Below, one piece after another: positions 37,247-59,570 of a stretch of DNA of 64,000 nt; the first letter of the stretch is position 1; the number at the start of each line of letters is the position of its first letter. The notes below the pieces were generated by a model. The model saw only the letters and a program-made list of their open reading frames with translations, ran no database searches and was not told the origin of the DNA. Origin of the DNA: an uncultured Rhodospirillaceae bacterium (GTDB lineage: Bacteria; Pseudomonadota; Alphaproteobacteria; UBA9219); assembly GCA_964390005.1 (NCBI GenBank), contig CAYMGM010000003.1:81758-145757 (forward strand), in the 5' to 3' direction. Made by a program: the position numbers and the translations under genes.

Positions 37247-37371
37247 GCCAAGACCAAGTAAAAACAAAAGGTTATAATGTATTTCCCCGTCCTTTATAAA
37301 GCATCTTGCCGCTAAAGGCAAAAAAGGGATGGGTGTGTCTAAGTAATTAAAAAATAAGTCTAATTTGGATG

Positions 37372-39098: not shown

Positions 39099-39342
39099 TT
39101 GGCGTTTTCTTCCGTAGAAAGAACCCGTAGGGCCGGCGGGCCGCCGGGGGCCTTTGTTATTCTTTCCGCGTCATCTCAATGTTTGATGGCTGAAACGCCT
39201 GTGAAGCGGTGGGAGAACTTAACGGTATTGATTTAAGACTATTTTAAGCTTGCCTTGCTAGCGATAGTATTCACACTCGTCGTGAGAGGTGGGATTCGCG
39301 CCTCTGCACGTTTCTTTCTGCCTATCCACTTGGGTGATTTCC

Positions 39343-42300: not shown

Positions 42301-42609
42301 ACGCTGGGCGCGCGGGTGCGGCAAGTCTTGCCCTTCCTGACATCGGCCAACAATCGGGCGGCGTTCCAAGCCTCGGCGGGGTGGATGCACGCGATTGGCG
42401 ACGCGAACCCCGAGACCAGCTTGCGCTTTGCGGGCTCTCGCGCCTTTGAAACCCAAGCGGCCCCGCTGGCCCGCGATGCCGCTGTTCTTGGCGCTGGCGT
42501 TGATTATCTGATCGGCCAGCAAACCACGCTTGGCCTTGCGTACACCGGCCAGATCGGCGCGCACGCCGACACCCAAGCCCTTCGCGGGAATCTGAGCTAT
42601 CGGTTCTAA
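39343..42609 (+). CDS. Classical (type Va) autotransporter with a repeat-rich passenger
   Basis: Signal peptide MSSFPLRTFLAALLASSCFVPVAQA. ITWDGGAGTSSWFDANNWSG opening. Seven roughly 58-aa tandem repeats (G(S/T)xGT(I/V)TVTG..STLESG...(L/V)T(I/V)SDGG), then PATR-like beta-strand repeats. C-terminal beta-barrel ending LRGNLSYRF. Confidence 0.9.
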   Translation: MSSFPLRTFLAALLASSCFVPVAQAATITWDGGAGTSSWFDANNWSGNAVPTSSDEVRLDAIGVDVNGLVESTATLSVGHTGTASLAIENGGAVTSSSGNHIFVGNASGSNGTITVNGTNSTLESGNQLIVGYHGTGRLTISDGGNATADSSIYAGYLTDGVGTIVVTGSDSMLESGKHFFVGYSGSGSLTVSDGGTVSSASGYNIYAGTYTGSTGTITVTDIGSTLESGNAVVIGNYGTGTLTISGGGYVGSTDDSIYVGYNAGSTGTITVTGSGSTLASGRNVYIGQSGTGTLVISDGGIVSDAYGEIGTVANSIGTVTVVGTGSRWTNSDILYVGRSGSGTMLVSSGGTVSSGTSYIGAWSNSTGDVTVTGLGSTLESGQNISVGNAGDGTLTVSDSGTVSTSGVLTIAADTVSTGTLNIGAASGSSAVAPGTVTASRGIVFGGGTGTIVFNHTSTNYTFASSISGVGTIESVTGTTYLTGDLSGFSGTFDLEGGTLSVVTSGVQTLSNSLSGSGTMAFASGTTYLTGDSSSFTGTAAVSGSGILSVNGTLGGTVDVADGGTLKGSGTVGGIDAASGGTVAPGNSIGTLSVSGNVSFASGSTYDVEANLTSSDKIVATGAATITGGDVSLIAYQGALLRAGTTYTILTADGGVSGTFDSISFADPLLFLTATLSYDATDVYASVIRNGVSLASVAGSGNQANAAAAIESLGAGNAVYDAVAMQSDVGTTRQAYQALSGEIHANVKATLLEDQAAFGRVLAGRLAQAEDNQTGFAAPVTAPAPVVASARGRILYGDKIANDAAVANAKIAPTVWAQGFGGWGSRDGDANARDFKHQDKGLMLGVDGMMGDNWRLGLAFGYDHADYNQEDETGDKGTSERYSVSAYGGRSWGKLSLRTGLTYAYSDIDTKRGVSFPYYSDYLKGSYNAHSVSGFAETAYGFGDKESKIEPFANLAWGYVNVPGFTEKGGAAALTAEDSDGTLGSTTLGARVRQVLPFLTSANNRAAFQASAGWMHAIGDANPETSLRFAGSRAFETQAAPLARDAAVLGAGVDYLIGQQTTLGLAYTGQIGAHADTQALRGNLSYRF

Positions 42610-42637
42610 GAAAGAGCCCCTTAGCGCAGTGGAGGAT

Positions 42638-42664
42638 CAAAAGGTGAGCTGAGCTCACCTTTTG
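42638..42664 (+). terminator. Strong hairpin after the autotransporter gene (probable terminator)
   Basis: 12-bp perfect stem CAAAAGGTGAGC / GCTCACCTTTTG with a 3-nt loop. The A/T tracts are inside the stem ends, so it could act in both directions. Confidence 0.5.
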
Positions 42665-42666
42665 AC

Positions 42667-42679
42667 AATCCCGTAGGGG
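42667..42679 (+). repeat. Direct repeat of the tRNA-Glu 3' end (AATCCCGTAGGGG)
   Basis: Exact 13-nt copy of 39048..39060 (T-arm 3' strand plus acceptor 3' strand), 16 of 20 identical when extended. A shorter copy CCCGTAGGG lies at 39124..39132. Confidence 0.6.
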
Positions 42680-42948
42680 GCAACAATTAGACTATTCATA
42701 CTTGATCTTTCCCACTCTAAAACCCGCGCAGATTAGTCCGCGAGAAGCATGACGAAGTCTGAAGGGCTTGATGGGGCACCGTGCTGCCCCCGGCCCAGTA
42801 CCGTGAAAAAAGCGTCATGGCTTGCCTCTTTGGGGACTGATCCTGCCTATAATGGGTACTTTAACCTTTCAGTGACTTTGATTCCATTCAAGAAAGCATT
42901 TTCTGTTTGGTAAAATGACTTTGTATTTATTTGATATTGGGGATGTTT

Positions 42949-43494
42949 ATGGAACAGGATGCCGAAATGCTGGGCCAAGGTGATACCGACGTTTCTCAAA
43001 ATCCGTATCAAGACCTGACCGAAGCGGCGTTAGCCGATTACATAGCCCGCCATAAAAGGGAACTTGCGTCCCTTGAAAACGATGCTTTTAAAAAAGCGGC
43101 CCAGCAGATTACGACTCGTGACGACGCATTTCTCAGAAGCGCCTGTGACGTTCGTAATGGCCTCTTCACGATTCAACGCAGAATTGGGCAAATATCCGAA
43201 GTCCTGCAAGACCGCCTTGACGCTGCAGGGGAGACAAAAAACAATCTGGTCAACGAATGGAAACAGATGCGTGTAACATGCTCCCGGATTAGCAAAAAGT
43301 CTGTTTGTCCACTTGGGCAGATTTCTCACACAATTGATGATTATCGCCATGCCTTTCCCAACGAGAAATCGACATTCCTAAAAAAGCTGGGACAAGTCAG
43401 CGTTGTTGCATCGATTGTTGCCGTCATTTCCGGCTATTTCTTCGGAGACAGCCTTAAGGCAAAGGCTCTAGTACGGGTGGTGGCCTCGTTATAG
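42949..43494 (+). CDS. Hypothetical protein with a C-terminal hydrophobic segment
   Basis: ORF in an AT-rich stretch with no recognisable motif. C-terminal VSVVASIVAVISGYFF. Start uncertain (42931, 42943 or 42949). Confidence 0.4.
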   Translation: MEQDAEMLGQGDTDVSQNPYQDLTEAALADYIARHKRELASLENDAFKKAAQQITTRDDAFLRSACDVRNGLFTIQRRIGQISEVLQDRLDAAGETKNNLVNEWKQMRVTCSRISKKSVCPLGQISHTIDDYRHAFPNEKSTFLKKLGQVSVVASIVAVISGYFFGDSLKAKALVRVVASL

Positions 43495-43596
43495 GGACTG
43501 TAATAGCGAACATGGGGCAAGTAAAAACGAAAACCGTGCCTAAAAGGCCCCTTGAAGCGGCAGAAATTCGGCAAGTGTACGCTTACCTCTCTTAGC

Positions 43597-43860
43597 TTAA
43601 GGGCCAGAGGGGGCTCCTACAGAGCTATCCGAAACTTGTGGCTGTGAGACGGGACTGTGGTTTTTCTTGGGGGGTAAAAGGACACGATCAAGGCGATTTG
43701 CCCAATAATTCGACTGGGCTGTCTTATCATTCTTGCCAAGCGTTTGCATCTCTTCGGCAGCGCTTTTGAAGCTAGCTCGAATCTTTTTAATCCCTCGCCA
43801 AAGCCCATAGCTAAAAGCTATTGAGCCAAGACTGATAAAAAATAGATCGGAATAAGCCAT
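43597..43860 (-). CDS. Hypothetical small membrane protein
   Basis: 87-aa version starting MAYSDLFFISLGSIAFSYGLW (GGAG RBS). AT-rich context; weak call. Confidence 0.3.
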   Translation of the reverse strand: MAYSDLFFISLGSIAFSYGLWRGIKKIRASFKSAAEEMQTLGKNDKTAQSNYWANRLDRVLLPPKKNHSPVSQPQVSDSSVGAPSGP

Positions 43861-44303
43861 CCTACGTCTCCGATTGAAGCCTTGTGGCAGTTTCCCACTT
43901 CCTGCCCTTAGCAACAAGTTTTTAATGCGTTGTTAATGACTTCATTTCTCGTTAACTTATGAACCAAAGGAAAAAAGATAGCATTGAAAAATAACGCGTA
44001 GTTCTTTTTATTTAAAAGAGGTCTTTTGGTTCTTCCCGATTTTTCTTATCATTACATTTGGGGCATTTAATCGATAGTGCCGCCGAAAGAGTATCTCCAT
44101 CGTTTTGTTTTACAAACAGAACGAACTATTCAATAGCGCCCGCATTTTAAGAAATATAACAACGAAGAAATATAAAGCATCTCCCCGTGTGTATTTCATT
44201 GTGACTTTAATTCTAGATTAATTCTTCTCCTGAAAAGTGGCAGGCAGCGAAGGGTGGGCCTTCTGTTTTTTGAAGTGTAGCTTAGCTATATAGGTGGGGA
44301 ATA

Positions 44304-46289
44304 ATGCGGTTTTTGCGTGTCGGCGGGCTTTGTGTGCGCGCTCCTATCCGGCGTCTTGGTCTTTGCTTGTTGGCTGGGGCGATGTGTTTTTCTGTGACGC
44401 CTGCTTTGGCGTTGGAAGAGATCAACACTTATATTTTACCCTCGACGCCGAATTTCAGGGATCTTGCGGGCATTTCAGCGAGTAATGGCGGCACGGGGTT
44501 TGTCAATCCCACCAGCAATGGCGGCGCGATGCGGACGGGCGTCATTTATCGCTCGGATTATTTGTCTTTAAGCAACGAAGATTGGCAAAAGATCTCGACC
44601 TTGAATATTGGCCGCGATATCGATTTGCGGACCGATTCAGAAATCGCGTCTAATCCCGATCTTGTCCCGGCGGGGGCTGTCCATACGCAAATCAATATTT
44701 ATGGCACACCTGCACCAACCCCCAGTCCGTTTTGGGGCACGCCCGCAGAAGCGGTTGCGTTTATGGAAAGCGGATACCGCGATTTCGTTCGAGACCCGCC
44801 CACGCAACGGGATGGGTTTTATAATGTTTTGATGACCATCGCGCATGACGACTTTCCCGTGTTGTATCATTGCTCGGGGGGCAAGGATCGCACGGGATGG
44901 ACATCGGTCCTTCTTCAAACCATCGCGGGCGTGTCGCAAGACACGATTATGCAAGATTATCTTGCGACGAACAGTTATACCGCCGCGTTGATGGCCAGCA
45001 CGAAAGCCAACCTTTTATTGACGTATCCAACATGGGATCCCGCGACCATTGACGCGCTTTTGGGGGTGCAAGCCAGCTATCTTCAAGCGGCCTTTGATCA
45101 GGTGGCGATTTCCTATGGATCTATGGATGCCTATTTGAAAGAGGGGCTTGGGCTGACGCAGGCCGATATCTATGTCTTGCGCGCCAAGATGGTCTACTAC
45201 GCCTCACTGCCCGGTCAAAGCGGGATGGTCGGCAACGCCGCCGCAGGCGCTTCTTTGTTGAACGCACTGCAAAACACGCCGCTATCGGGGCATTACACGG
45301 CCTATAACTATTACCTGCAGTCGGCGATCGAGGCGGGGACGCTTGGCGGGGTCGAAACGCAAGTCGGCGGGCAGGTTCATGCCGATGCGGCTTCGTTCCT
45401 TTTACGTCAGCCTCAATGGATCGAGACGACGTCTCAACCCTATACCGCGCCGGAAAAAAGCGAACGTCCTTATCTTTGGATGGTTGGCTTGGGCGGCCAT
45501 TTTGAATCGAACGGCGGCAGCGGCATCGAAAGCAGCCGCGAAAACAGTGGCGGCACGCTTATGGGGGCGACCTATCGCCTTGACGACCAGATCAGCGCGA
45601 CCTTTGGCTATGGCTATCAGTGGGGCTCGGTCGGGAGCGCTGGCGGCGATGCAACGCTGAATACCTATTTGGCGATGGCGAGCGGGCGCTATGCGTTTTC
45701 TTCGCTTGAGGCCGGGCCTTATGTAACCGCGCAAGCCCATGCGGGTTATGTGGACTATGAAAGCAAACGGCATCTTGGCGGCGGCTTAGGGGCGGCAAGT
45801 GGTGATAGCGATGGCGCTCTTGTCAGCAGCTTTGTTGGGATTGGCGACCGGATCCGCGTGCCGTCTTTGACGCTGACACCGCAAACGGGCGTGCGCGTTA
45901 CACATCTTTTCCTTGGCGGCTTTCAAGAAACCGGTAGCGATCTTGCCTTGAAGGTGAAGTCGATGAACCCGATGACATCAAGCGGCGCCGCGCGGTTCGA
46001 GGCGCGTATGGATCCTCAATCCGTTGGCGCGTGGACATTTGCGCCTGCTGTGGCGGTTGGTTATGAACGTGCGTTTAACGATCCGCAAAGCGAGACCACA
46101 GGATCGCTTTATAATTTGCAAGTCAGTCAAAAGTCGGCTTTTGACAGCCGAAATCTTGCCAATTTAGATTTGGATGTGACGGCGCGTTATGAATCGCTTG
46201 TTGTGAAGGCGGGGCTTTCCGGTCTGATTGGCGATGCTGCCAAAAGCAGCGGTGTCAATGGGCGCTTGTCGGTGAGTTACAATTTCTAG
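44304..46289 (+). CDS. Autotransporter with a protein-tyrosine/dual-specificity phosphatase-like (CX5R) passenger
   Basis: Signal peptide (...CLLAGAMCFSVTPALA). NFRDLAG and IYRSDYL, then the P-loop LYHCSGGKDRTGW (HCxxGxxR(S/T)) at about 44868..44897, typical of the Y_phosphatase3-type family. The C-terminal roughly 280 aa are beta-barrel-like, ending GRLSVSYNF. Confidence 0.8.
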   Translation: MRFLRVGGLCVRAPIRRLGLCLLAGAMCFSVTPALALEEINTYILPSTPNFRDLAGISASNGGTGFVNPTSNGGAMRTGVIYRSDYLSLSNEDWQKISTLNIGRDIDLRTDSEIASNPDLVPAGAVHTQINIYGTPAPTPSPFWGTPAEAVAFMESGYRDFVRDPPTQRDGFYNVLMTIAHDDFPVLYHCSGGKDRTGWTSVLLQTIAGVSQDTIMQDYLATNSYTAALMASTKANLLLTYPTWDPATIDALLGVQASYLQAAFDQVAISYGSMDAYLKEGLGLTQADIYVLRAKMVYYASLPGQSGMVGNAAAGASLLNALQNTPLSGHYTAYNYYLQSAIEAGTLGGVETQVGGQVHADAASFLLRQPQWIETTSQPYTAPEKSERPYLWMVGLGGHFESNGGSGIESSRENSGGTLMGATYRLDDQISATFGYGYQWGSVGSAGGDATLNTYLAMASGRYAFSSLEAGPYVTAQAHAGYVDYESKRHLGGGLGAASGDSDGALVSSFVGIGDRIRVPSLTLTPQTGVRVTHLFLGGFQETGSDLALKVKSMNPMTSSGAARFEARMDPQSVGAWTFAPAVAVGYERAFNDPQSETTGSLYNLQVSQKSAFDSRNLANLDLDVTARYESLVVKAGLSGLIGDAAKSSGVNGRLSVSYNF

Positions 46290-48568: not shown

Positions 48569-48949
48569 ATGGACAAGGATTTGACGGAGCAACAGCGCCT
48601 TTTGGCGCGGACGTTGGCGGATCGCTATGGGCTTTCATTCCCTGGCGGCGTTCTAGATGACCCTTCTTTTGGAAAAAAGTTTTTGGACCTGTTCGCTTGG
48701 GATCCGGATTCGGACCAGACGACGGGGTTTCGGCGCGTTTCAGTGATTGAGAGCTATCTTTATTATGATAAGGATATTGGGCACCTGCAAAACAAGCTTG
48801 AGCTCAGTCGCGCTGACGTCGCCTTTATGATCAAGGTGTTGGCCGAATATAAATATGGCGGCGAAATCCCGCGCGAACGCGACGAACCCGATCGCGATCC
48901 CGAGGATATCTATTATGAAAAGCTTGATACGGTCGCCGTCGAATCTTAG
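48569..48949 (+). CDS. Hypothetical protein
   Basis: 126 aa from MDKDLTEQQRLL (the track ORF begins at 48527). Acidic C-terminus; no family recognised. Confidence 0.45.
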   Translation: MDKDLTEQQRLLARTLADRYGLSFPGGVLDDPSFGKKFLDLFAWDPDSDQTTGFRRVSVIESYLYYDKDIGHLQNKLELSRADVAFMIKVLAEYKYGGEIPRERDEPDRDPEDIYYEKLDTVAVES

Positions 48950-49518
48950 GCCGGGACGGCTTCGGTGTCGTAGGTGACAAGGCTGGAGACAGGCAGGTCC
49001 ATGCTTTCTAGCTTTTGGCGGCCGGGCAAGAAGGTCAGCTCGACAACAAAAGCCGCGCGCGTCACGACGGCCCCCATTTGACGGGCCAAAGATGTTGCGG
49101 CGCTTGCGGTGCCACCGGTCGCCAGTAAATCGTCGATAAGGACGGCCCGTTGGCCTTTTTGCAGAATACCTTCTTGAATCTCGATGGTGTCCGAACCGTA
49201 TTCAAGGTCATAAGTATAAGAGGCCGTTTGACCCGGCAGCTTGCCTTTTTTGCGGACCATGACAAAGCCGATGCCTAAAAGAGCCGCAACAGGCGCGCCC
49301 ATCAGAAAACCGCGCGATTCGATCCCCAGCAAGACATCGGGCTTTTCGGCGCGCACCACGTTGGCCAAGCGCCCAACGGTGGCCTCCCACGCGGGGCCAT
49401 GCGCTAAAAGTGTTCCAATATCGTAGAAAAGGATGCCGGGTTTGGGAAAGTTAGGAATTCCGCGAATATGCTTTTTAAGATCCAGCGTTGTTGAATCAAG
49501 GGCGTCAAGCGAAGACAC
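48946..49518 (-). CDS. apt: Adenine phosphoribosyltransferase
   Basis: IPNFPKPGILFYDI and the PRPP-binding VLIDDLLATGGTA. Confidence 0.92.
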   Translation of the reverse strand: MSSLDALDSTTLDLKKHIRGIPNFPKPGILFYDIGTLLAHGPAWEATVGRLANVVRAEKPDVLLGIESRGFLMGAPVAALLGIGFVMVRKKGKLPGQTASYTYDLEYGSDTIEIQEGILQKGQRAVLIDDLLATGGTASAATSLARQMGAVVTRAAFVVELTFLPGRQKLESMDLPVSSLVTYDTEAVPA

Positions 49519-49762
49519 GGCAGCTCCTATGTTCTTGCGAGGAAAAGAAAAACGAAGACCCTTAGGAGAATTAACCGGATTCTAACGAAAGGTGAAGGAA
49601 AAAGAAAAGAGAAGTTAAAAAAGAAGGCAAGTTGTTGATGTCATACCGCTGCATATAAAAACAGTATATGACGACAAGATGGCTTGTATCGTGCGGACGA
49701 GACGGTATAGTTAAATCGTCTCTATTCGTAAAATCCTTAGGCTTGTTATCCGAGGTTCCTCT

Positions 49763-50881
49763 ATGGCCGCTTATCTTTCGCAAGCAGACGTCGAAAAATT
49801 GATGAAAGAGCCTTCGCCGCTTGCGCGGGCCGAGGTTGCGGCCAAATTAGGTCAGGAAATCGACAATCCTCAGCTTTCGGCCAGCGAAGTCGCGATGGCG
49901 CACGATATCGTTCGCCTTATGGCCCGCGATGTCGAAATGTCTGTGCGCGCATCGTTGGCGCAGAATTTGCGCCGTGCCGTGCGCCTCCCCCATGACGTCG
50001 CTTTGCAGTTGGCACGCGATGTCGAAGCGGTCGCTTTGCCGATCCTGCAAGAATCAACCGTTCTGACAGACCATGATCTGATTTCGATCATTCAAGCCGA
50101 TTCGCCCCAAAAGCATGAAGCGATCGCAAGCCGCGAAAATGTTTCGGCTGAGGTCTCGGAAGCCATTATTACCAATGCCGGTGAAGGCGCTGTCGCCAAG
50201 CTGATGCAAAATAACACCGCGCAAATCTCGGAAAACAGCTTTAACAAGGCGATCGATCGCTTCCAAGCCTCTGACAATGTGAAAGAAGCTATTGTTAAAC
50301 GCGAAGCCCTCCCTGTTACGGTGGCCGAGCGTTTGACGTTCATCGTTTCTTCGCAATTGCAGGATTATCTCGTTTCGCATCACGAACTTTCTCCGGCTGT
50401 TGCCGCCGATCTTGTGCTGCAAAGCCGTGAGCGGACGATTGTCAACCTTTCGCGCGGGGGCGAAGAGGAAGATATTGAGCAACTGGTTCAACAAATGTTT
50501 CAAAACAACCGGTTAACCTCTTCGATCGTTCTGCGGGCTTTGTGCGTCGGCGATTTGCCCTTTTTTGAGGCCGCTATTGCCATTCGGGGTAATATTCCGC
50601 TGACCAATGCGCGAATCCTGATTCATGATGCGGGACATTTAGGGTTAAAGACCCTTTATGAAAAGGCTGGTATGCCCCCGAATTTACTGCCAATTGTGCG
50701 GGCCGCTTTGGACGTTTTACATAATACCGAGATGTCGGATGAAGGCAAAGATGCTGTAAGCCTTTATCGCGCCTGTGTTTTAGAGAGAATTCTGACCCAA
50801 TTTGAGCATTTGGCGTCGGATGATATCGATTATCTTGTGGCGAAGCTTGGCGACATTTTAACCCCAGCTTCTGCGGCCTAA
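49763..50881 (+). CDS. DUF2336-like helical-repeat protein
   Basis: 372 aa of HEAT-like helical repeats (...RAEVAAKLGQEI...VRASLAQNLRRAVRLPHDVALQLARDVEAVALPILQESTVLTDHDLISII), matching my recollection of alphaproteobacterial DUF2336 proteins. Confidence 0.65.
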   Translation: MAAYLSQADVEKLMKEPSPLARAEVAAKLGQEIDNPQLSASEVAMAHDIVRLMARDVEMSVRASLAQNLRRAVRLPHDVALQLARDVEAVALPILQESTVLTDHDLISIIQADSPQKHEAIASRENVSAEVSEAIITNAGEGAVAKLMQNNTAQISENSFNKAIDRFQASDNVKEAIVKREALPVTVAERLTFIVSSQLQDYLVSHHELSPAVAADLVLQSRERTIVNLSRGGEEEDIEQLVQQMFQNNRLTSSIVLRALCVGDLPFFEAAIAIRGNIPLTNARILIHDAGHLGLKTLYEKAGMPPNLLPIVRAALDVLHNTEMSDEGKDAVSLYRACVLERILTQFEHLASDDIDYLVAKLGDILTPASAA

Positions 50882-51146
50882 GTTCCGAAAGGAACGAAAT
50901 ATTAACAATTTGGGTGCAAATTTGAAGAGAGCTTGAGGCAGGTGCGTCTCAAGCAAGGTTTCGTGTGCGCCCTTTGATTTGAAACGATGTGTTGATCGGG
51001 CGCGCCTTCTTGAACAATTGAGCGTTGAGCATAGCGCGAGGATGTTTAATGGCGACAAGGAATACGATAAAAATCAGTCGATTTTTAAAGACGTTTCCAT
51101 GGCGCCAAACGTCTTGCAAAGGATCATTTTTATGTGGGGGCGTGTC

Positions 51147-54100
51147 ATGACACACAGCCGGATTTTTTGTGCATCCGAACGATCGGACTTGCCCTCTTCA
51201 AAACGACGCGGCTTTGCTATCGCACCAATCCTGTATTTGCTGATGATGATCGGCGTTGCCGCCGGTATGCTGTTCAGCAGCTTTAGTCAGGTTCTTCATA
51301 GCAACATCAATACAACAAATATGTTGACGGCGAAGAACGATATCAATGCCATCGCGACAGCTTTATCGGCGTCGAGCGGTGTCTCGGAAGGGTTGGTTTG
51401 TACGCCGCCGTCAAGTGCTGCGGCTGCCACGGGGGCATGCGCAACGGCGACAATCCGAAATCTTCTTGTTCCTCTGGCTTCTGCCGATGCGGCGCATCTA
51501 CCGAAAAATAAGGAAGCTCTTGCTGGATCGGGGGGGAATCCTCCGGCAGAATATGGCGTTCTTTCCGCCGATGCGGGGGTTAAACAACTCGACCCCTGGG
51601 GCCATTATTATATCTATTGTCGTTGGAACACCGCGGTTCTCAATGACATGAACAAGCAAGTCATCAAGATTATTACGGCGGGACCGTCTGGCACATTGCA
51701 ATCAACTTGCGATGATGGCGGCAACAACGCCAACGCCGTCGGAGACAACCAGGTCATTTCTTTGACCGGGAATATGATCAAACAACGTGCCTCGGTGTGG
51801 GTCAATCAGGGGCAAAATGCAACCTACGGCACGACAGACGCGCAGGTTCTTGTGACGGCGACCGGCGGTATGGAAGCCATAAAGGCAAGCGTCGCGGGCC
51901 TTGTCGCGCAGACGGCGACGATTGGTTCTTTTCATGGTCAAAATGGGCACTTTGACTCTTTGACCTTGGGCACGCCTTTGGATATCGCCTATGGCGGTAC
52001 AGGGGCTTCCGATTCGCTTCATGCACGCAATAACTTGGGGTCTGGGGCTATTGGCGACAGCCTTTTTGTTTCTACAACGGCGACAGACGCGCGCGCGACC
52101 TTAGAGGCGGGCGCGATCGGCGGGTCGTTGTTTGTGGCCGGAACGGCGACCGAAGCGCGGAGCGTTCTTGAAGCTGGCGCTGTTGGTGGGTCTGTTTTTG
52201 TCGCGGCAACGACAACAAGCGCGCGCGATGCTTTAGGGGCAGGCGCGATTGGTCATCAGCTTTTCACCTCAACAAGCCAGTCCGGTGCGCGAAGCGATCT
52301 TGGGGCTGGGACAACGGGCGATTCTTTGTTCCAAGCCTCGGATCCTCATGCGGGAAGATCCGTTCTCGGCGCTGGGACAGTTGGAGAAGGCGTTTTTCAA
52401 TCGATGACTTATGCTGCAGCGTGGGCCGCTTTGGGGCTGACGGGCGGGTCAGGAACGTTGCAAGTGAATGTGACAGGCCAAGCCGGGACCGTTCCCGCTA
52501 CGGGGATTGTCGGTATCGTTTCAATTTCGCAAGGCGGTACGGGGGCTTCAAGCGCGGCATCGGCGCGTACGAATCTGGGCGCAGATAACGCTAGTAATTT
52601 GACAACAGGGACGCTGTCTGTGTCGCGCCTTGCCGACAACTCGATTACCAGCGCAAAACTGACCACAACAGGCGTGACCGCGCAGACTTATAATTGGGGT
52701 ACAGTCGATGCGGCAGGTCGTGTGACAGAGGCAAACGACGTTGTTTTAGGAAATCTTACGGATGGAAGTGGCGACGGTATCGCTGCCTCGACTTCCGGTG
52801 GCGGTTCTTTGACGTTTATGACCGCCAGCACCGTTTGGATGACGTTAGACTCGAATGGGTATTTAGGGCTCAATGTCGCCAATCCGGGCGAACGTTTGCA
52901 TGTGAACGTTGGCAATATCCGCGTGTCGGGACCTGCCGCCACGGCGCGTGATTTGCAGTTTACGACAAGTACGTCTAGCTTGCGTTGGGTTTTGGGGACC
53001 GACAGCACGGCGGAAAGCGGTAGCAACGCGGGCTCGAACTTTTTCCTGAACCGTTATAGCGATGCGGGCGGTGCGCTTGGTACAGTGCTTGCGATTACGC
53101 GTTCGACAGGGGCCGCATCTTTTTCAGGCACCGTCGCTTCAACAGGCGGTTTCAATGGCAATTTGACAGGCAATGTGACGGGGCAAATCTCGCTTCCCGA
53201 TGGGACTGTCGGCGCGCCTTCGATGAACTTTCAGAACAATGCCAACATGGGGCTTTACCGTCCCGGCGCCAGCGCGATGGCGTTTGTGACTGGCGGGGCC
53301 GAGCGTTTGCGTTTGTCCGCGACCGCAGGGATCGGTATTGGGACGACCGCGCCGCGTGTGGCGTTGGATATCGGGTCTTTAACTGACGCGATGGTTCTTC
53401 CTGTCGGAACGACGGCACAGCGTCCGGGGTCAAACTTTGCTGGCGCGGTGCGCTATAACACGACGATCCCGTCGCTTGAAGTCAACAACGGGAGCGGGTG
53501 GAGTTCACTTATTACCAGCACATCGTCAATGTCGAGTGGCGTCATTTTAGGGGCCTCGGCGGCGGCGACAAACCCCCAGCGTTCGGGCGATGCGACGACG
53601 GGCCTGTTCAGCGCGGCGGCGGGGACGGTCAGCGTGGCGTCGTCGAGCGCGGAAGTTGCACGTTTCAGCGCGACAGGGCTTAATTTGCCAGGCTTGACGA
53701 CGGCCTATTCGATTGCGGGCAGCAAGGTCGCTGCGCTGCCGGGTAGCGATACGACCAGTCTGGCTTTGGGGCCGAATGCCTTGGCCGCGCAAAATACCAC
53801 AAGCTTGAACAACGTCGCGGTAGGCTCGCAGGCAGCGACAAGCCTGTTATCCGGTCATGAAAACGTCGCCGTGGGCGTTCAAGCCCTTTACACGACGACG
53901 ACCGGTTATCAGAACGTCGCGGTGGGTACGCATGCCCTTTATACCGATTCATCCGGCGCGCAAAACTTGGCGGCTGGCTATGAAGCCCTGTACAAAAACA
54001 CGACCGGGTCGGACAACGTCGCCAGTGGTGCGCGAGCTCTTTATAGCAACCAAGGCGGCAACAATAACGCGACGCTTGGCTATGAAGCGATGTACTATAA

Positions 54101-57100
54101 TTCATCGGGCAGTGAAAACACCGCGGCCGGTTTCATGGGGATGGCGTCGAATACGACCGGCAACAACAACACGGCGCTGGGTGCTTATGCGTTGTACAAT
54201 TCGGCGACGCGGACGACTGGGAATAACAACACGGCCATCGGATATCAGGTCGGCTCGAAAACGCTTGTTTCGGGGTCGGGTAATATCTTGATCGGCACGT
54301 CAAGCTTGACCGATGTGCCATCGGCGACCACCAACAATTGGATGAACATCGGCAACACGCTTTATGCCGATCTGTCGGCGGGCAATGTCGGCTTTGGCAA
54401 CGCTACGATCCATACGGGTGTGTCGGTCGATATGGGGTCGCGCGTGGATAGCTTGCTTTTGCCGACAGGTACGACGGGGCAACGTCCGGGCTCGGGCGTG
54501 CAGGGGATGATGCGCTATAACAGCTCGATCGGCCAGTTAGAGGCTTATACGGCGTCGGGTTGGGCGACAATTTTGTCGAACACATCAACGAGCACGGCGG
54601 ATGTCTTTTTAGGCAGTACGGCGGCTTTAACCAACCCGCATCGTAATGGCGATGCGACGACGGGTCTGTTCAGTCCTGTGGCGGGAACGGTGGCCATTTC
54701 AACCGCCGGTACGGAAGCGCTGCGCGTGAGCGCAACAGGATCCGTGGGGATTGGGACGACGGCGCCTAGCGCGTCGCTGGATGTCCGTGGTGGGGCGTTC
54801 ATTTCTTCTGCAAATGACGGTATCGTCAGAATAGGTTCGGATTCAAACGGTGAGATTGAGATTGGAAATATTGGGCGTTCAACGTCAGGACAGCCTTATA
54901 TCGATTTCCATAGCTCGGTGAACTCGCCGGATTATGACGTGCGTTTGCAGGCCTCGGGCGGGACAACAACCAGCGGGATGGCTGATTTTCTGATTTTGGC
55001 GCAGCGCGTCACGGTCGGGTCGGGAGCCCCTACCGCGGGTGCTGGCCTTGATCTTAGCAGCCGGACGGGGACGGCTTATAGCTCGATGATTGTGCCAAAA
55101 GACACGACGGCGAACCGGCCTTCAGCCGGTGTTGCAGGTATGCTGCGTTACAACACGACGCTTGGCATGTTCGAAGCCTATACGGCCTCGGGTTGGTCGA
55201 CCATCTTGGCGAACACGGCCACGAACTCGCCCGACATCTATTTGGGGCCGGGCGCGACGCAAACAAATCCGCATGTCAGCGGGGATATCACAACGGGTCT
55301 TTTCAGTGGCGCGGCCAGTACGGTTGGCATCGCAACCGCGGGCGTTGAGCGCTTGCGCGTGACCGCGACGGGAAGCGTCGGGATTGGGACGACGGCACCG
55401 TTAGAACGGCTTCATGTTGCATATGCTGGAAACACAACAGCTTTAATTGATTCAATGGCGACCTCTCGCATATCTCAAGTGGCCTTTATCCGCGGATCTG
55501 GTAATGCGACATATATTGGGCCTACAGCATCAAACACAATGGACTTCTGGTCTTATGAGACTATTCCATTCCGCTTTGCTATTAATAATGCTGAGGTCAT
55601 GCGTATTACCACGACGGGAAGCGTTGGGATTGGAACGACAACACCGGCCTATCCACTCGATGTAAATGGGTCGGCACGAGTTACCGGCAATATCTTTGGG
55701 ATCCAAAACGGATATGGGATTTATTCAGATACGGCTTATTCAACTGGGGCGGGGATTCAGGTTTTAGGAACAACAGCCTCAACCCCCAATACCTTGTCTT
55801 TTTGGACAGGAGCTGCCGCACTCGCGGAGCGTATGCGTATCACAGCGACCGGCAGTGTCGGTATCGGAACGGCGTCGCCGCTTTATATGCTGGATGTCGC
55901 GGGCGGTATCCGGTCAAGCGGCGAAATCATTTCCACGAGCGCCAATCAATTCCGCATGGTCTATGGAAGCTATGGTGCGTTTTGGCGCAATGATGGATCG
56001 AATACGTATCTGTTGTTGACGGCTTCAGGGGATCAATACGGGACTTGGAATACGTTGCGTCCGTTCCAAGTTAACAACGTGACGGGGAATGTGACCGTCG
56101 GAACGAACGCCTATTTTGGTTCTAATCTTGGGATCGGGACGGCGACGACGAGTGCAGGAGCCTCTTTGGATATGGGCTCTAAAACGGATAGCATCTTGAT
56201 GCCCAAAGGTACGACGGCTCAACGTCCGGCGACCGGGCTTGCGGGTATGGCACGTTACAACAGCTCAATCGGGCAGTTGGAGGCTTATACAGCGTCAGGG
56301 TGGGTCACGATTTTGGCGAATACGGCAACCAGCTCGCCGGATGTGTATTTGGGTAGCGCAACAAGCGCGACGAATCCGCATGTGAATGGCGACGTGACAA
56401 CAGGATTGTTTTCGCCTGCGGCAAGTAACGTCGCTATTGCAACGGCGGGGACAGAGCGGTTGCGTGTGACCGCGACGGGGAGCGTTGGGGTTGGAACGAC
56501 AGCCCCCGCCTATACTTTTGACGTTACAGGCCAAGGTCGGTTTTTATCTTCTGTTGGAGTCGGTGGTGCGCCGCTCGGCTATTCGGCATTTAGTGTCGCC
56601 GGCGAAAGTACAATGAACAGCCAGGATGGGAATGGTCTTTTCAACATTGTTGCTGGTGGGTATCAAGCCGTAGCGGGAAGCACATATGTTTATACCAATA
56701 CACGTGGCGCTTCGCGGTTGCTATTGGCTGATGCTAACATTGGTTTGTTCGCTGGTGGTGCAAACGGTACGGGGTCTGCAGGAACGACCATCTCATGGAC
56801 GCAGCTTGCTGATATGACCGGGTCTGATCATATTTGGTTAAGCCCGCGCGGGACCTCGACCGATTTCTATATGACCTCTACTGGGGGTATTGGTATTGGG
56901 ACGGCGACGCCACTTGCAACGTTGAATATTAAATCATCTTACAGCTGTTGCGGTGCGGCGGGAAGTTCGGGTACGTCGGCTCTTGCCATCGATGGAGCGG
57001 TCAATGACTTGGCTCTTCGGCTTTATAACTCAGCGACTGGTGGTCGTGATTGGCGTTTGCTGTCTTCAGGCGGTGGTACAGGCGTTGGGGTTGGTAACTT

Positions 57101-58607
57101 TAACATTTATGACGTTTCCGCAGGAGCGACGCGCTTGAGTATCTCAGCAACAGGATACGTGGGTATTGGAATGACGGCGCCGAAAGCCTATCTTGATATT
57201 GGTACATTGTATTCCTGTTGTGCGACGCAGACGCCGACGCTTGGGATTTCTGAGAACTCGACTTCAAATAGTCGAATGCCGTGGATCCAGTTCCATGCAG
57301 CGGGTAAAGCAGAGGCCTTCTTGCGATTGCAGACGGCGAATCGTACCCTTGAAATTGGTGATAACCAAGCAGTCGGTGCGGGGCTTGCAATTATGAAACC
57401 TGACTTGTCTGGACGAAATGTATACTTATCATCGGGTGACTCAAGTTACATCTTAGGAACATTAGGTGTTGGAACCTCGTCTCCAGGGGTTAACTTTGAT
57501 CTTCAATCAAATAATCCGTATACAGCCATGAGAATTGGCGCTGCATCGACACCAACGATTCAGTTCCTATCTTCTTGGGGCGGCACAGATGTTAAGTATT
57601 GGGATATGTATGCAAACTCGTTTAATTTTATATTCCGTGCTGTCAGTGATGATTTTATGAACAACACAACGTGGCTTCAAGTTAATCGAGGTGGAACGTA
57701 CGGGTATAGCGTTAGCTCGATTTCATTTCCAAGTGCAGCTCCCGTCGGTATTGGGACATCTAGCCCGACGCATAAGTTGCATGTTTATAACCCAGCGGGA
57801 GGCGCTCGGACGGGGTACCATCAAGGGATGGGTGGCGTTGGTGATGTTTATATCACCGACAACAACGCTATCCTTTCCTCAAACGTTTACTACAATGGGG
57901 CATGGTATAATACGGCGGCTGGAATGGGAACCATTATAGATTTCTCGAATGGTACCCTAAACATTCAAACGACAGCATCGGCAGCGGCTGGGGCAACCCC
58001 GACAACCACATCGCGACTCTATATGACCAATGCAGGGTTCTTGGGCCTTAATGCGGGCGTGCCAACCTATCCCGTCCAAGTCGGGACCACGACATCGAAC
58101 GGGAACGGCGCTTTCCTTGATCCTGCCGGTGTTTGGACCAACGCATCTGATGCGCGCAGCAAAGAGAACGTGCATGAAGTGCCCTATGGTCTTGAGACGC
58201 TGATGAAGTTGAAACCCGTTGCCTATGAAATGAAAGGCACGCATCAAAAGCAGATCGGCTTTATCGCGCAGGAAGTCGCCAAAGTGGTGCCAGAAGTCAC
58301 GTCGGTCAGCGATAAGGGCTGGTACGGGTTGAGTTACGGCAACATGACGGCGATTACCGTGAAGGCTATTCAGGAAATGAAGGTCGAAAACGACAGGCTG
58401 GCTGCCGAAGTCGCGCGGTTGAAAGACCAAGGTCAAGACGTGCGGGCAGGTCGCGATGGCGGACGGACCGATGCGTTGACCGCTGAAGTTGCCGAGCTGC
58501 ACCGGACCGTCACGCTGCTGATCTGGGGGCTTGGCGAGCTGGCCATTATCGCTTTGGGCGGCGTGGGCGCGGCGATCTTCTTTGCCGCGCGACGGCGAAG
58601 GCGGTAA
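51147..58607 (+). CDS. Giant (about 2,486 aa) fibre protein: prepilin/pseudopilin-like N-terminus, tail-fibre-type repeats, C-terminal S74 intramolecular-chaperone domain and TM anchor
   Basis: Single ORF; the track starts it at 50979, and I prefer ATG 51147 or 51132. N-terminus KRRG-FAIAPILYLLMMIGVAAGM, then LDPWGHYYIY...IITAGPSGT. YGGTGAS...ARNNLG plus six ARxxLGAGxxGxxLF repeats. N(T/V)AxGxxAL repeats. Four modules with GT(T)xQRP...G(M)xRYN....LEAYTASGW. C-terminus ASDARSKENV...IGFIAQEVAKVVPEV...AITVKAIQEM (Peptidase_S74-like). Final LLIWGLGELAIIALGGVGAAIFFAARRRRR. Confidence 0.85.
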   Translation: MTHSRIFCASERSDLPSSKRRGFAIAPILYLLMMIGVAAGMLFSSFSQVLHSNINTTNMLTAKNDINAIATALSASSGVSEGLVCTPPSSAAAATGACATATIRNLLVPLASADAAHLPKNKEALAGSGGNPPAEYGVLSADAGVKQLDPWGHYYIYCRWNTAVLNDMNKQVIKIITAGPSGTLQSTCDDGGNNANAVGDNQVISLTGNMIKQRASVWVNQGQNATYGTTDAQVLVTATGGMEAIKASVAGLVAQTATIGSFHGQNGHFDSLTLGTPLDIAYGGTGASDSLHARNNLGSGAIGDSLFVSTTATDARATLEAGAIGGSLFVAGTATEARSVLEAGAVGGSVFVAATTTSARDALGAGAIGHQLFTSTSQSGARSDLGAGTTGDSLFQASDPHAGRSVLGAGTVGEGVFQSMTYAAAWAALGLTGGSGTLQVNVTGQAGTVPATGIVGIVSISQGGTGASSAASARTNLGADNASNLTTGTLSVSRLADNSITSAKLTTTGVTAQTYNWGTVDAAGRVTEANDVVLGNLTDGSGDGIAASTSGGGSLTFMTASTVWMTLDSNGYLGLNVANPGERLHVNVGNIRVSGPAATARDLQFTTSTSSLRWVLGTDSTAESGSNAGSNFFLNRYSDAGGALGTVLAITRSTGAASFSGTVASTGGFNGNLTGNVTGQISLPDGTVGAPSMNFQNNANMGLYRPGASAMAFVTGGAERLRLSATAGIGIGTTAPRVALDIGSLTDAMVLPVGTTAQRPGSNFAGAVRYNTTIPSLEVNNGSGWSSLITSTSSMSSGVILGASAAATNPQRSGDATTGLFSAAAGTVSVASSSAEVARFSATGLNLPGLTTAYSIAGSKVAALPGSDTTSLALGPNALAAQNTTSLNNVAVGSQAATSLLSGHENVAVGVQALYTTTTGYQNVAVGTHALYTDSSGAQNLAAGYEALYKNTTGSDNVASGARALYSNQGGNNNATLGYEAMYYNSSGSENTAAGFMGMASNTTGNNNTALGAYALYNSATRTTGNNNTAIGYQVGSKTLVSGSGNILIGTSSLTDVPSATTNNWMNIGNTLYADLSAGNVGFGNATIHTGVSVDMGSRVDSLLLPTGTTGQRPGSGVQGMMRYNSSIGQLEAYTASGWATILSNTSTSTADVFLGSTAALTNPHRNGDATTGLFSPVAGTVAISTAGTEALRVSATGSVGIGTTAPSASLDVRGGAFISSANDGIVRIGSDSNGEIEIGNIGRSTSGQPYIDFHSSVNSPDYDVRLQASGGTTTSGMADFLILAQRVTVGSGAPTAGAGLDLSSRTGTAYSSMIVPKDTTANRPSAGVAGMLRYNTTLGMFEAYTASGWSTILANTATNSPDIYLGPGATQTNPHVSGDITTGLFSGAASTVGIATAGVERLRVTATGSVGIGTTAPLERLHVAYAGNTTALIDSMATSRISQVAFIRGSGNATYIGPTASNTMDFWSYETIPFRFAINNAEVMRITTTGSVGIGTTTPAYPLDVNGSARVTGNIFGIQNGYGIYSDTAYSTGAGIQVLGTTASTPNTLSFWTGAAALAERMRITATGSVGIGTASPLYMLDVAGGIRSSGEIISTSANQFRMVYGSYGAFWRNDGSNTYLLLTASGDQYGTWNTLRPFQVNNVTGNVTVGTNAYFGSNLGIGTATTSAGASLDMGSKTDSILMPKGTTAQRPATGLAGMARYNSSIGQLEAYTASGWVTILANTATSSPDVYLGSATSATNPHVNGDVTTGLFSPAASNVAIATAGTERLRVTATGSVGVGTTAPAYTFDVTGQGRFLSSVGVGGAPLGYSAFSVAGESTMNSQDGNGLFNIVAGGYQAVAGSTYVYTNTRGASRLLLADANIGLFAGGANGTGSAGTTISWTQLADMTGSDHIWLSPRGTSTDFYMTSTGGIGIGTATPLATLNIKSSYSCCGAAGSSGTSALAIDGAVNDLALRLYNSATGGRDWRLLSSGGGTGVGVGNFNIYDVSAGATRLSISATGYVGIGMTAPKAYLDIGTLYSCCATQTPTLGISENSTSNSRMPWIQFHAAGKAEAFLRLQTANRTLEIGDNQAVGAGLAIMKPDLSGRNVYLSSGDSSYILGTLGVGTSSPGVNFDLQSNNPYTAMRIGAASTPTIQFLSSWGGTDVKYWDMYANSFNFIFRAVSDDFMNNTTWLQVNRGGTYGYSVSSISFPSAAPVGIGTSSPTHKLHVYNPAGGARTGYHQGMGGVGDVYITDNNAILSSNVYYNGAWYNTAAGMGTIIDFSNGTLNIQTTASAAAGATPTTTSRLYMTNAGFLGLNAGVPTYPVQVGTTTSNGNGAFLDPAGVWTNASDARSKENVHEVPYGLETLMKLKPVAYEMKGTHQKQIGFIAQEVAKVVPEVTSVSDKGWYGLSYGNMTAITVKAIQEMKVENDRLAAEVARLKDQGQDVRAGRDGGRTDALTAEVAELHRTVTLLIWGLGELAIIALGGVGAAIFFAARRRRR

Positions 58608-58645
58608 GAGGGGATTCAGCATCTAGCATGCAGCATTCGGGAAGG

Positions 58646-58672
58646 GGGGCGCGTGAGCGCCCCTTTTCTTTT
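58646..58672 (+). terminator. Intrinsic terminator after the giant ORF
   Basis: GGGGCGC-GTGA-GCGCCCC hairpin followed by TTTTCTTTT. Confidence 0.8.
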
Positions 58673-58729
58673 GGTTTGGGGGATGGTATTTCTGGACTGG
58701 GGGTGTCAGGGTTCCCGGATAGGCCCTCT

Positions 58730-58754
58730 GGATCCCCGCCTCCGCGGGGATGAC
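58730..58754. repeat. REP-like GC-rich palindromic element (single copy in the window)
   Basis: GGATCCCCGCCTCCGCGGGGATGAC with the hairpin TCCCCGC-CTCC-GCGGGGA. Its reverse complement would read VIPAEAGI, resembling the palindromic intergenic elements that produce spurious (V/W)IPAxAG(I/M) ORFs in various proteobacteria. Confidence 0.35.
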
Positions 58755-58853
58755 ATAATTTTTCTGGGGCGGGCTTTTTGTTTCGAAGCTTGCCTTTCTT
58801 CCTCCCTGAATGCAGGACCTGTCCTGCGAAGCTTTAGCGTAGCAGGATGCTCA

Positions 58854-59570
58854 ATGCCGCATGCTTCTTCCCCCTCCCTTGTCGTTTTAACCGGCGCCGG
58901 TATTTCCGCCGAATCTGGCGTGCCGACGTTTCGGGGGCCTGATGGTTTGTGGTGCGGCGCGCGCGTTGAAGATGTCGCGACGGCTCAAGCCGTTCGGTTC
59001 AATCGGCCTTACGTCAATCAGTTTTTTAACAAGCTGCGCGTCGAGGCCGATAAGGTTCAACCTAATCCGGCGCATGTGGCTTTGGCCGATCTCGAGGCGC
59101 GGTGGCCGGGGCCGTTTTTATTAGTCACGCAAAATATCGATCCCTTGCACCAAAAAGCGGGCAGTCGAAACGTGATCGCGATGCATGGCTCGCTTTATCG
59201 CGTGGCTTGCGATGCGTGTGGGGCGGTCATGGATTGGCAGACCGATCTGTTTGTCGAAACGCCTTGCCCCGCGTGCGGTAAGACGGGCGGTTTACGGCCC
59301 GATATCACGCTGTTTGGCGAAATGCCAAAAGAGATGGACCGGATCAGCGAGGCGTTGCTTTCCTGCGCTATTTTTATCGCAATCGGGACGTCAGGCGTTG
59401 TTTATCCGGCGGCGGGGTTTGTCGATTTGGCGCTGCATGCCGGGGCGCGGACGATTGAGGTCAATTTGGCTGAGACCGAGCGATCGCTCGCCTTTGCCGA
59501 GAGGCTGACAGGCCCCGCGGGACAGGTTGTGCCTAAGCTGGCCGCGCAGCTTTTGGCGACGGTGCGTTGA
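58854..59570 (+). CDS. cobB: NAD-dependent protein deacylase (Sir2/CobB family)
   Basis: Start re-picked at MPHASSPSLVVLTGAGISAESGVPTFRG. QNIDPLHQKAG, HGS and zinc ribbon CDACG...CPACG. Short single-domain form. Confidence 0.9.
   Translation: MPHASSPSLVVLTGAGISAESGVPTFRGPDGLWCGARVEDVATAQAVRFNRPYVNQFFNKLRVEADKVQPNPAHVALADLEARWPGPFLLVTQNIDPLHQKAGSRNVIAMHGSLYRVACDACGAVMDWQTDLFVETPCPACGKTGGLRPDITLFGEMPKEMDRISEALLSCAIFIAIGTSGVVYPAAGFVDLALHAGARTIEVNLAETERSLAFAERLTGPAGQVVPKLAAQLLATVR

Follow-up and report, generated by a model that had tools for sequence, protein, structure and literature searches.

S74 intramolecular chaperone domains of phages, such as those of the endosialidase endoNF and of tail fibres and spikes, are soluble and cytoplasmic. 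Here we analysed a 64-kb stretch of DNA (64,000 nucleotides, hereafter the window) from contig CAYMGM010000003.1 of an uncultured Rhodospirillaceae bacterium, and we describe a giant gene on its forward strand that encodes a fibre protein ending in an S74 domain, a predicted membrane helix and a basic tail. This S74 domain shares with its phage counterparts the match to the profile hidden Markov model (HMM), the Ser-x4-Lys dyad, the GFIAQE and AIQE blocks, the C-terminal helix and the position at the end of a shaft. It differs from them by the terminal membrane helix and basic tail that follow it, by belonging to a cellular protein that is predicted to be exported, and by being encoded in a chromosomal syntenic gene.

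An S74 domain (also called ICA) followed by a transmembrane helix is also found in the eukaryotic membrane-bound transcription factors MYRF/MrfA. In MYRF, a trimer-dependent self-cleavage frees the N-terminal part of the protein from its membrane anchor (PMC3742443, PMC8326128). However, MYRF carries as its cargo a DNA-binding domain, located on the cytosolic side of the ER (endoplasmic reticulum), whereas the cargo here would be a fibre outside the cytoplasm, with a second anchor kept at its N-terminus. An Ndt80-type DNA-binding domain of the MYRF type is not among the Pfam hits of the fibre protein. In Bacteria, the MAT (mosaic adhesive trimer) fibres of the predator Bdellovibrio bacteriovorus are exported by Sec and exposed at the surface, and 13 of the 21 end in a self-cleaving S74 domain (PMC10769870, PMC12428579). 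From their published description, they are alike in being cellular, multi-copy, tail-fibre-like trimers with a conserved N-terminal module and mosaic ends. Nonetheless, the same descriptions set the two apart: while MATs are about 1000 residues long, with an ordinary signal peptide, a beta-rich N-terminal domain of about 130 residues and no membrane anchor reported (PMC10769870), the fibres described here reach 1.1 to 5.3 thousand residues, start with a prepilin-like helix and sheet, and carry a chaperone with a predicted membrane anchor.

At its N-terminal end, the protein is to be compared with pilins and pseudopilins, among which CofB is a trimeric tip pilin. Modular pilins such as PilB of S. 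sanguinis also associate a pilin-type start with a large grafted module, and they are expected at filament tips (PMC8179133). A pilin plus S74 architecture (IPR012902-IPR030392) has even been catalogued among them, the S74 domain being read as a peptidase (PMC8179133). The fibre protein differs from modular pilins in having neither Glu5 nor a match to an N-methylation HMM, and its graft lies far above the 860 residues given as an "extreme case" (PMC8179133). Its resemblance to GspG lies in the basic leader, the Gly-Phe junction and Gly14, in the long helix at the N-terminus, and in a hairpin of the form DPWGxxYxY ... SxGxDG. However, its N-terminal module lacks Glu5 and also the C-terminal DIGNW motif, which does not vary across the GspG alignment; the module has four cysteines and more than 2000 further residues behind it, and the profile match to GspG is local, spanning 31 columns. 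In the literature, of which our coverage is incomplete and gives no proof of absence, we found neither a membrane-anchored bacterial S74 domain nor such fibres in Micavibrio-like bacteria. By joining a divergent pilin-like anchor to a giant tail-fibre shaft and to a self-cleaving S74 domain tethered to the membrane, the protein would represent a family-level architecture made of known parts.

With slightly better than even confidence, we propose that the protein is a cellular, homotrimeric surface fibre resembling phage tail fibres, which would be anchored at both ends, freed at its tip by trimer-dependent self-cleavage, and then lifted as the tip of a pilus or pseudopilus. The gene is a single open reading frame (ORF) at 50979-58607 (+), of 2542 residues when counted from TTG 50979; residue numbers below follow this count. 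The start annotated by NCBI, ATG 51042, gives 2521 residues (protein P0024, on a 203-kb contig). An alternative start at ATG 51147, with a GGGGG run 6 nt upstream, gives 2486 residues with a leader of 22. The peptide reported at 58140-58607 (+) in the initial annotation translates exactly, ending in LLIWGLGELAIIALGGVGAAIFFAARRRRR followed by the stop codon, and is the C-terminus of this ORF. The features of the gene are as follows (the arrow marks the Gly-Phe junction):

51147 to 58607, plus strand: giant fibre gene; ORF open from TTG 50979, with starts at ATG 51042 or ATG 51147
51147 to 51212, plus strand: basic leader of variable sequence (...SSKRRG↓F), whose last residue, Gly78 of the ORF, is invariant; resembles a class III prepilin signal
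51213 to 51275, plus strand: N-terminal hydrophobic helix FAIAPILYLLMMIGVAAGMLF, with Phe+1 and Gly+14 conserved and Pro, not Glu, at +5
51213 to 51830, plus strand: conserved N-terminal module with a long helix, a beta-sheet and four conserved Cys (alignment and AlphaFold2 (AF2) model)
51591 to 51626, plus strand: GspG-like hairpin DPWGHYYIYCRW (profile comparison with GspG)
52023 to 52310, plus strand: five 22-residue repeats of the type AR..LGAG...G..F (sequence inspection)
52311 to 58145, plus strand: fibre shaft rich in Gly, Ala, Thr and Ser (matches to phage tail-fibre PHROGs)
58146 to 58430, plus strand: S74 intramolecular chaperone domain (Pfam match), whose C-terminal helix ITVKAIQEMKVENDRLAAEVARLKDQ ends at 58430
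58431 to 58514, plus strand: linker (GQDVRAGRDGGRTD), then a short helix ALTAEVAELHRTVT leading to the membrane (28 residues)
58515 to 58589, plus strand: predicted C-terminal transmembrane helix LLIWGLGELAIIALGGVGAAIFFAA of 25 residues, Gly-rich as in relatives (hydropathy)
58590 to 58607, plus strand: RRRRR tail, predicted to be cytoplasmic, and stop codon (translation)
58639 to 58670, plus strand: terminator-like hairpin of 14 pairs, 8 of them G-C, then a T-rich tail; 32 nt past the stop

First, the assignment of the end of the protein to S74, already proposed in the initial annotation, agrees with a Pfam search, in which Peptidase_S74 (PF13884) matches residues 2390-2440 (nt 58146-58298) and covers positions 1-56 of a profile 58 positions long. 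With the whole protein the E-value is 3e-12 (47 bits), and with the last 355 residues it is 3.6e-13; scores of 47-50 bits compare with a curated cut-off of 22 bits. The GFIAQE and AIQE blocks and the C-terminal helix are present as in phage S74 domains. The Ser-x4-Lys dyad is formed by Ser2390 (58146-58148) and Lys2395 (58161-58163) within N-A-S-D-A-R-S-K, and S-D-x-R-x-K is invariant in an alignment of the window protein with six relatives. The domain occupies the C-terminal end of the protein, behind sequence that matches tail-fibre PHROGs and Gp34_trimer. In a PDB search, a phage tail fibre was the sole hit (E 0.0018), with no particular sequence affinity to MyRF. At the sequence level, the domain is a genuine S74 chaperone whose Ser/Lys dyad is intact.

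A Ser-Asp scissile bond had also been proposed, but this does not hold for S74/ICA domains, which trimerise, assist the folding of fibres, cut as trimers only, and do so N-terminal to the catalytic serine. Indeed, MyRF is cleaved between P586 and S587, on the N-terminal side of the serine, its S587/K592 being equivalent to S911/K916 of endoNF (PMC8326128), and Bd3182 of Bdellovibrio cleaves itself at S782 (PMC10769870); the dyad of these domains is defined in both studies. By analogy, the predicted scissile bond is therefore the one between Ala2389 and Ser2390.

Second, a membrane helix with a positive-inside tail at the very end of the protein is borne out by hydropathy and by its recurrence in relatives. 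In a 19-residue Kyte-Doolittle scan of the 2542 residues, only two segments exceed 1.6, at residues 81-99 (2.27) and 2518-2536 (2.03). A window of at least 2.0 falls within the last 35 residues in 6 of 2000 composition-preserving shuffles, but it occurs somewhere in the protein in 791 of 2000, the protein being rich in Ala, Gly, Leu and Val, and the hydrophobic stretch by itself is thus only moderately unusual. It is its conservation in relatives that makes the C-terminal helix more than a chance feature: in these proteins the sequence of the region is poorly conserved while its hydrophobic and basic character is kept. Since the N-terminal hydrophobic segment is preceded by KRR, the anchoring of the precursor at both ends, as initially proposed, also stands at the sequence level. 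Both hydrophobic segments have a basic cluster on their terminal side, so that, by the positive-inside rule, both termini are predicted to be cytoplasmic and the body of the fibre to lie outside the cytoplasm.

Between the two anchors, the tail-fibre-like shaft extends over about 2300 residues. It contains the repeated fibre motifs GIGTxxP and LPxGTxxxRP...RYN and a Gp34_trimer match at 55872-56069. Gp34_trimer and Peptidase_S74 are the only Pfam hits in the whole fibre protein.

We then considered the relatives of the protein. A word-indexed search with the last 263 residues gave 23 relatives, six of which (P0001, P0002, P0003, P0006, P0008 and P0009) end in a helix and a basic cluster. S74 domains are widespread, since a profile search run exhaustively against 1.84 billion representatives retrieved 124,137 S74 proteins at E <=0.001; 145 S74-bearing proteins, mostly the best hits of this set, were examined. 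A helix (hydropathy >=1.6 after the S74 domain) and a basic cluster follow S74 in 23 of the 145, P0052 (S-S-x-x-x-K) being a further case. The chaperone tails measure 140-195 residues with the helix versus 88-140 residues in most proteins without it. Eight complete giants of 1091-5301 residues (P0034, P0037, P0042, P0043, P0045, P0047, P0052 and P0053) combine the same N-terminal motif with S74 and the helix, which makes nine with the window protein P0024. This shared architecture delimits a family of giant proteins encoded on chromosomes. Most related loci end before the 3' end of the giant gene, and complete architectures were taken from protein representatives. The family is mosaic, its members ending in S74 with a transmembrane helix, in S74 alone or in Cys-rich tips: P0089, L016 and L023 carry the same N-terminal motif with non-S74 tips, L014 has a G-F-G-V-A variant with a non-S74 tip, and L030, of which the N-terminus is cut off, ends without S74. 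Thus, the interpretation of the initial annotation stands for the S74 domain, the anchor and the two-end tether, though not for the scissile bond, and to it we add that the gene is cellular and syntenic, that its N-terminal anchor is prepilin/GspG-like, and that the architecture is shared by a family.

Several members have features of their own. The largest, P0052 (5301 residues), has S-S-R-R-Y-K at the predicted cleavage site and keeps the helix and basic tail. Many members that have no S74 finish with a small Cys-rich motif at the C-terminal tip, for example ...C.GAIALTH...C.C......W or ...MEICQ; it is found in P0048 (662 residues), P0035, P0079, P0089 and L023, and in P0048 it follows S74. 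The members with a classical signal peptide, P0041, P0046 and P0079, start with a related Cys motif, C..P.G..GDQIY...YN.MQ.CNG..W. At the P0009 locus (L001:1798-10615), short ORFs with PTL_trimer (PF26696) hits end in a 204-residue ORF with S74 and a transmembrane helix; the locus adjoins transposase genes of the insertion sequence (IS) type and looks like a fragmented fibre gene or the result of assembly errors. Finally, one metagenome-assembled genome (MAG), Lab288P3bin233, has three genes with the N-terminal module (L027, L029 and L031) in a G-F-G-V-(T/A)-P variant; three copies in one MAG point to a multi-gene family, as with the Bdellovibrio MATs.

Thirty related loci (L003-L032) carry the N-terminal module, and every one of them comes from a MAG; the 31st hit (L033) is a Verrucomicrobial GspG gene. 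The loci are labelled Alphaproteobacteria, Rhodospirillaceae, Micavibrio aeruginosavorus (L008) or Bdellovibrionales, the last label being explained by NCBI taxonomy, in which Micavibrio is filed under Bdellovibrionales. Among species representatives, the closest UvrB relatives are at most 82% identical, bear the same labels and include no cultured organism, and the best identity for the N-terminal module is 44%. These labels suggest that the source of the window is a Micavibrio-related alphaproteobacterium.

In the 28 sequences of the N-terminal module that were aligned, conservation begins abruptly at the Gly-Phe junction, after a variable and mostly basic leader. The consensus is (K/R)xxG↓F-A-I-A-P-I-L-Y-L-L-x-L-x-G..., with Gly-1, Phe+1 and Gly+14 invariant; position +5 is Pro, or in rare cases Ala, and most sequences have an aromatic residue at +24. 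The block DPWGxxYIxCRW ... SAGxxGxLxTxCG and the four Cys are also conserved. Gly-1, Phe+1 and Gly+14 are hallmark positions of type IV pilins and GspG. In the window protein, the sequence ...SSKRRG↓FAIAPILYLLMMIGVAAGMLF has the layout of a class III signal, with a basic leader ending in Gly and then about 20 hydrophobic residues. Two other signals were considered and set aside: a Tat signal is unlikely since the RR pair of KRRGF in the window protein is not conserved in relatives, and a lipoprotein signal was rejected as there is no lipobox.

Sequence searches with the N-terminal 118-318 residues against Pfam, NCBIfam and PDB gave nothing useful, and T2SSG, although the commonest Pfam hit among the N-termini of the family, is weak (3 of 28 members). 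A link to GspG came from L033, which was recovered by a tblastn genome scan seeded with the module and is confirmed as GspG by its matches to the XcpT/PulG/EpsG structures in PDB (E 1.7e-14). Moreover, when the module was aligned by hhalign to a profile of six GspG globular domains, the probability was 93.6% (E 2e-7). An AF2 model built from a 16-sequence alignment (pLDDT 77.1, pTM 0.68) shows an N-terminal helix of 51 residues (12-62) followed by beta strands, which is the general pilin layout; an earlier model from nine aligned sequences was poor, at pLDDT 43, with meaningless Foldseek hits. The module is prepilin/GspG-like and probably homologous, and we regard it as a putative pilin only.

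The genomic setting is that of a cellular gene. A pair of genes found at 48946-50881 in the window, one for a phosphoribosyltransferase (PRT) and one for a protein that NCBIfam assigns to SpbR/DUF2336 at the equivalog level, recurs near the giant gene in at least 14 related MAG loci. In 10 of these loci, SpbR is directly upstream on the same strand. PRT and SpbR orthologues are 55-72% identical, versus about 40% for the fibre N-terminal module. This synteny, together with the faster divergence of the module, indicates that the locus is inherited vertically and that its product evolves fast. Other family members lie in different housekeeping contexts. The SpbR family is polarity-related in Caulobacter, and a functional link between SpbR and a polar fibre is conceivable.

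We can propose the following mechanism. First, the Sec translocon would insert the precursor so that both termini stay in the cytoplasm and a body of about 2400 residues lies in the periplasm. The tethered S74 domains of three chains would then encounter one another within the membrane plane and form a trimer by way of their helices, and the S74 trimer would nucleate folding of the fibre from its C-terminus towards its N-terminus. Only the trimer would cut between Ala2389 and Ser2390, freeing the tip of the fibre, while a 153-residue fragment made of the chaperone and its anchor would stay in the inner membrane. The tether may thereby concentrate and align the three C-termini as they leave the translocon and retain unassembled chains, cleavage acting as a release checkpoint, a logic known from MYRF (PMC3742443). 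In a last step, the weakest and most speculative part of the model, the mature trimer, held by three pilin-like helices and processed after Gly78, might be raised through a secretin, forming the tip of either a type IV pilus or a type II secretion pseudopilus; extraction by such a filament machine would be the most economical way to the surface. The missing Glu5 would fit a tip subunit, as some minor pilins of the tip, such as GspK, also have no Glu5. For the genome of M. aeruginosavorus, scattered pil genes are reported, along with a type II system that has no annotated GspC, G, H or K (PMC3189940); we take this as a lead, not as evidence, for the export step. We place moderate confidence in the predicted mechanism of a membrane-tethered chaperone, and less in pilus-type export. 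The fibre is probably an adhesin, and it may serve in the recognition of prey.

Several observations weigh against this scheme as a whole. On the pilin side, Glu5 is replaced by Pro and no N_methyl match appears in Pfam even at E values up to 10; the window protein has neither an N_methyl nor a T2SSG hit in Pfam, PDB profile searches with the module were empty, the hhalign match to GspG covers only the 31 columns of the DPWG hairpin, and Foldseek of the pLDDT-77 model against PDB gave no match with E <0.8. In addition, the 64-kb window contains no prepilin peptidase, secretin, pilus or secretion gene. At the other end, the close relatives P0004, P0005, P0007 and P0010 have S74 without a membrane helix, and P0041 joins S74 and the helix to a classical signal peptide instead of a pilin-like start; these exceptions indicate that the two ends are not strictly coupled. 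Finally, the predatory lifestyle of the source organism is suggested by MAG labels only.

Many of these points favour an alternative scheme, with the same tethered and self-cleaving S74 domain, in which the N-terminus would be a Sec signal-anchor and no functional pilin. The fibre would then stay in the inner membrane, or reach the surface or vesicles by another way, as proposed for the Bdellovibrio MAT fibres. The failure to match pilins by HMM, in PDB or with Foldseek, the missing Glu5, the neighbourhood free of pilus genes, the combination seen in P0041 and the ordinary signal peptides of MAT fibres are all consistent with it. Nonetheless, conservation starts exactly at the Gly-Phe junction, Gly+14 and the aromatic residue at +24 are placed as in pilins, the DPWG hairpin matches GspG and the predicted helix has 51 residues, whereas a plain anchor would not need such conservation. 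We consider this scheme rather unlikely, while taking it seriously.

It is also conceivable that the helix and basic tail are a sorting signal of the PEP-CTERM, GlyGly-CTERM or MYXO-CTERM type, removed by a dedicated enzyme, and not a passive anchor. Such signals do in general consist of a helix and then a basic cluster at the very C-terminus, and the tail of P0099 is weakly PEP/GlyGly-like, with 14.2 bits on MprA_tail (cut-off 19.7). However, when ten family tails were compared with the C-terminal sorting-domain models of NCBIfam (PEP-CTERM, GlyGly-CTERM, MYXO-CTERM and others), none came near a cut-off, the best scores of the nine other tails being at most 13.9 bits for cut-offs of 16-35. 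In addition, no signature motif is conserved before the helix among the aligned tails, and a sorting signal would be redundant on a fragment that S74 cleavage discards, which makes this explanation improbable.

Still less probable is that the S74 domain no longer cleaves and that the C-terminal helix serves permanently as the second anchor of a fibre that is periplasmic or spans the envelope. While P0052, with S-S-x-x-x-K in place of S-D-x-x-x-K, might be such a case, the Ser and Lys of the dyad and their flanking motifs are invariant in close relatives, and all studied S74 domains with such a dyad cleave (PMC8326128, PMC10769870). Lastly, a remnant tail-fibre gene of a prophage or tailocin, with an incidental terminal helix, would account for the PHROG tail-fibre and Gp34_trimer matches and for the name "tail fiber domain-containing protein" given to relatives by PGAP-type annotation, but we reject it as hardly credible on gene context and synteny, as the 64-kb window has no other phage genes, GC content across the fibre gene is unremarkable, synteny with SpbR and the phosphoribosyltransferase holds across at least 14 genomes with orthologues only 55-72% identical, and the N-terminal membrane segments and conserved Cys pairs point to export.

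If the two-end anchoring of a self-cleaving fibre is correct, the anchored S74 domain suggests how a trimeric fibre of more than 2000 residues assembles outside the cytoplasm: the anchor would keep three C-termini together within a two-dimensional plane, and the fibre would be let go only after folding correctly. It would also provide a bacterial parallel to MYRF, the association of ICA with a transmembrane helix having so far been discussed as a phage-to-eukaryote repurposing. Should the pilin-like start be functional, two adhesion devices, the pilus and the phage tail fibre, would be fused in one protein. As the attachment of Micavibrio-like epibiotic predators to their prey is unexplained (PMC12428579), this fibre family is a concrete candidate for that role, and the mechanism is open to test in the culturable M. 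aeruginosavorus and in E. coli. As a tentative extension, these proteins might be filament-tip proteins whose export is licensed by self-cleavage from an anchored S74 domain, forming in Micavibrio-like bacteria a mosaic apparatus of prey or surface recognition with exchangeable tips, and they may possibly be a bacterial source of the ICA-transmembrane module of MYRF.

With respect to pilus genes in related sequences, none was found among the pilus or secretion genes sought next to P0042 and P0053. At one locus (L007:6743-7378, minus strand), SpbR and the giant fibre gene are separated by a canonical prepilin gene whose leader reads ...SRRG↓FTLTEMAIVV, and no other classical pilin motif occurs in the roughly 450 kb of related sequence examined.

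In the window, the fibre gene is preceded by genes for two autotransporters, a peroxiredoxin, PurN, a short-chain dehydrogenase and the PRT-SpbR pair, and is followed by Sir2, RapZ and RibF. Genes farther away include CysS, GltX, UvrB, PlsX, FabH, RecO, PhaC, RecJ and others. The two autotransporters are encoded at 39289-42609 (+) and 44304-46289 (+), and the second has a Y_phosphatase3 (tyrosine phosphatase family) passenger fused to a beta-barrel (E 7e-58 and 4e-32). The stretch between them (42500-44500) has 45-49% GC, versus about 55% elsewhere. At 35387-37321 (-), a 644-residue protein has a Wzy_C domain of the O-antigen ligase/O-oligosaccharyltransferase type and adjoins a 678-residue protein that has no Pfam match; some members of the Wzy_C family glycosylate pilins. 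Downstream of the fibre gene, the listed start of the Sir2 ORF (GTG 58653) falls within the terminator-like hairpin at 58639-58670, and the Pfam SIR2 match starts only at residue 81 of this ORF (region 58628-58900); the true start of Sir2 is probably further downstream than GTG 58653.

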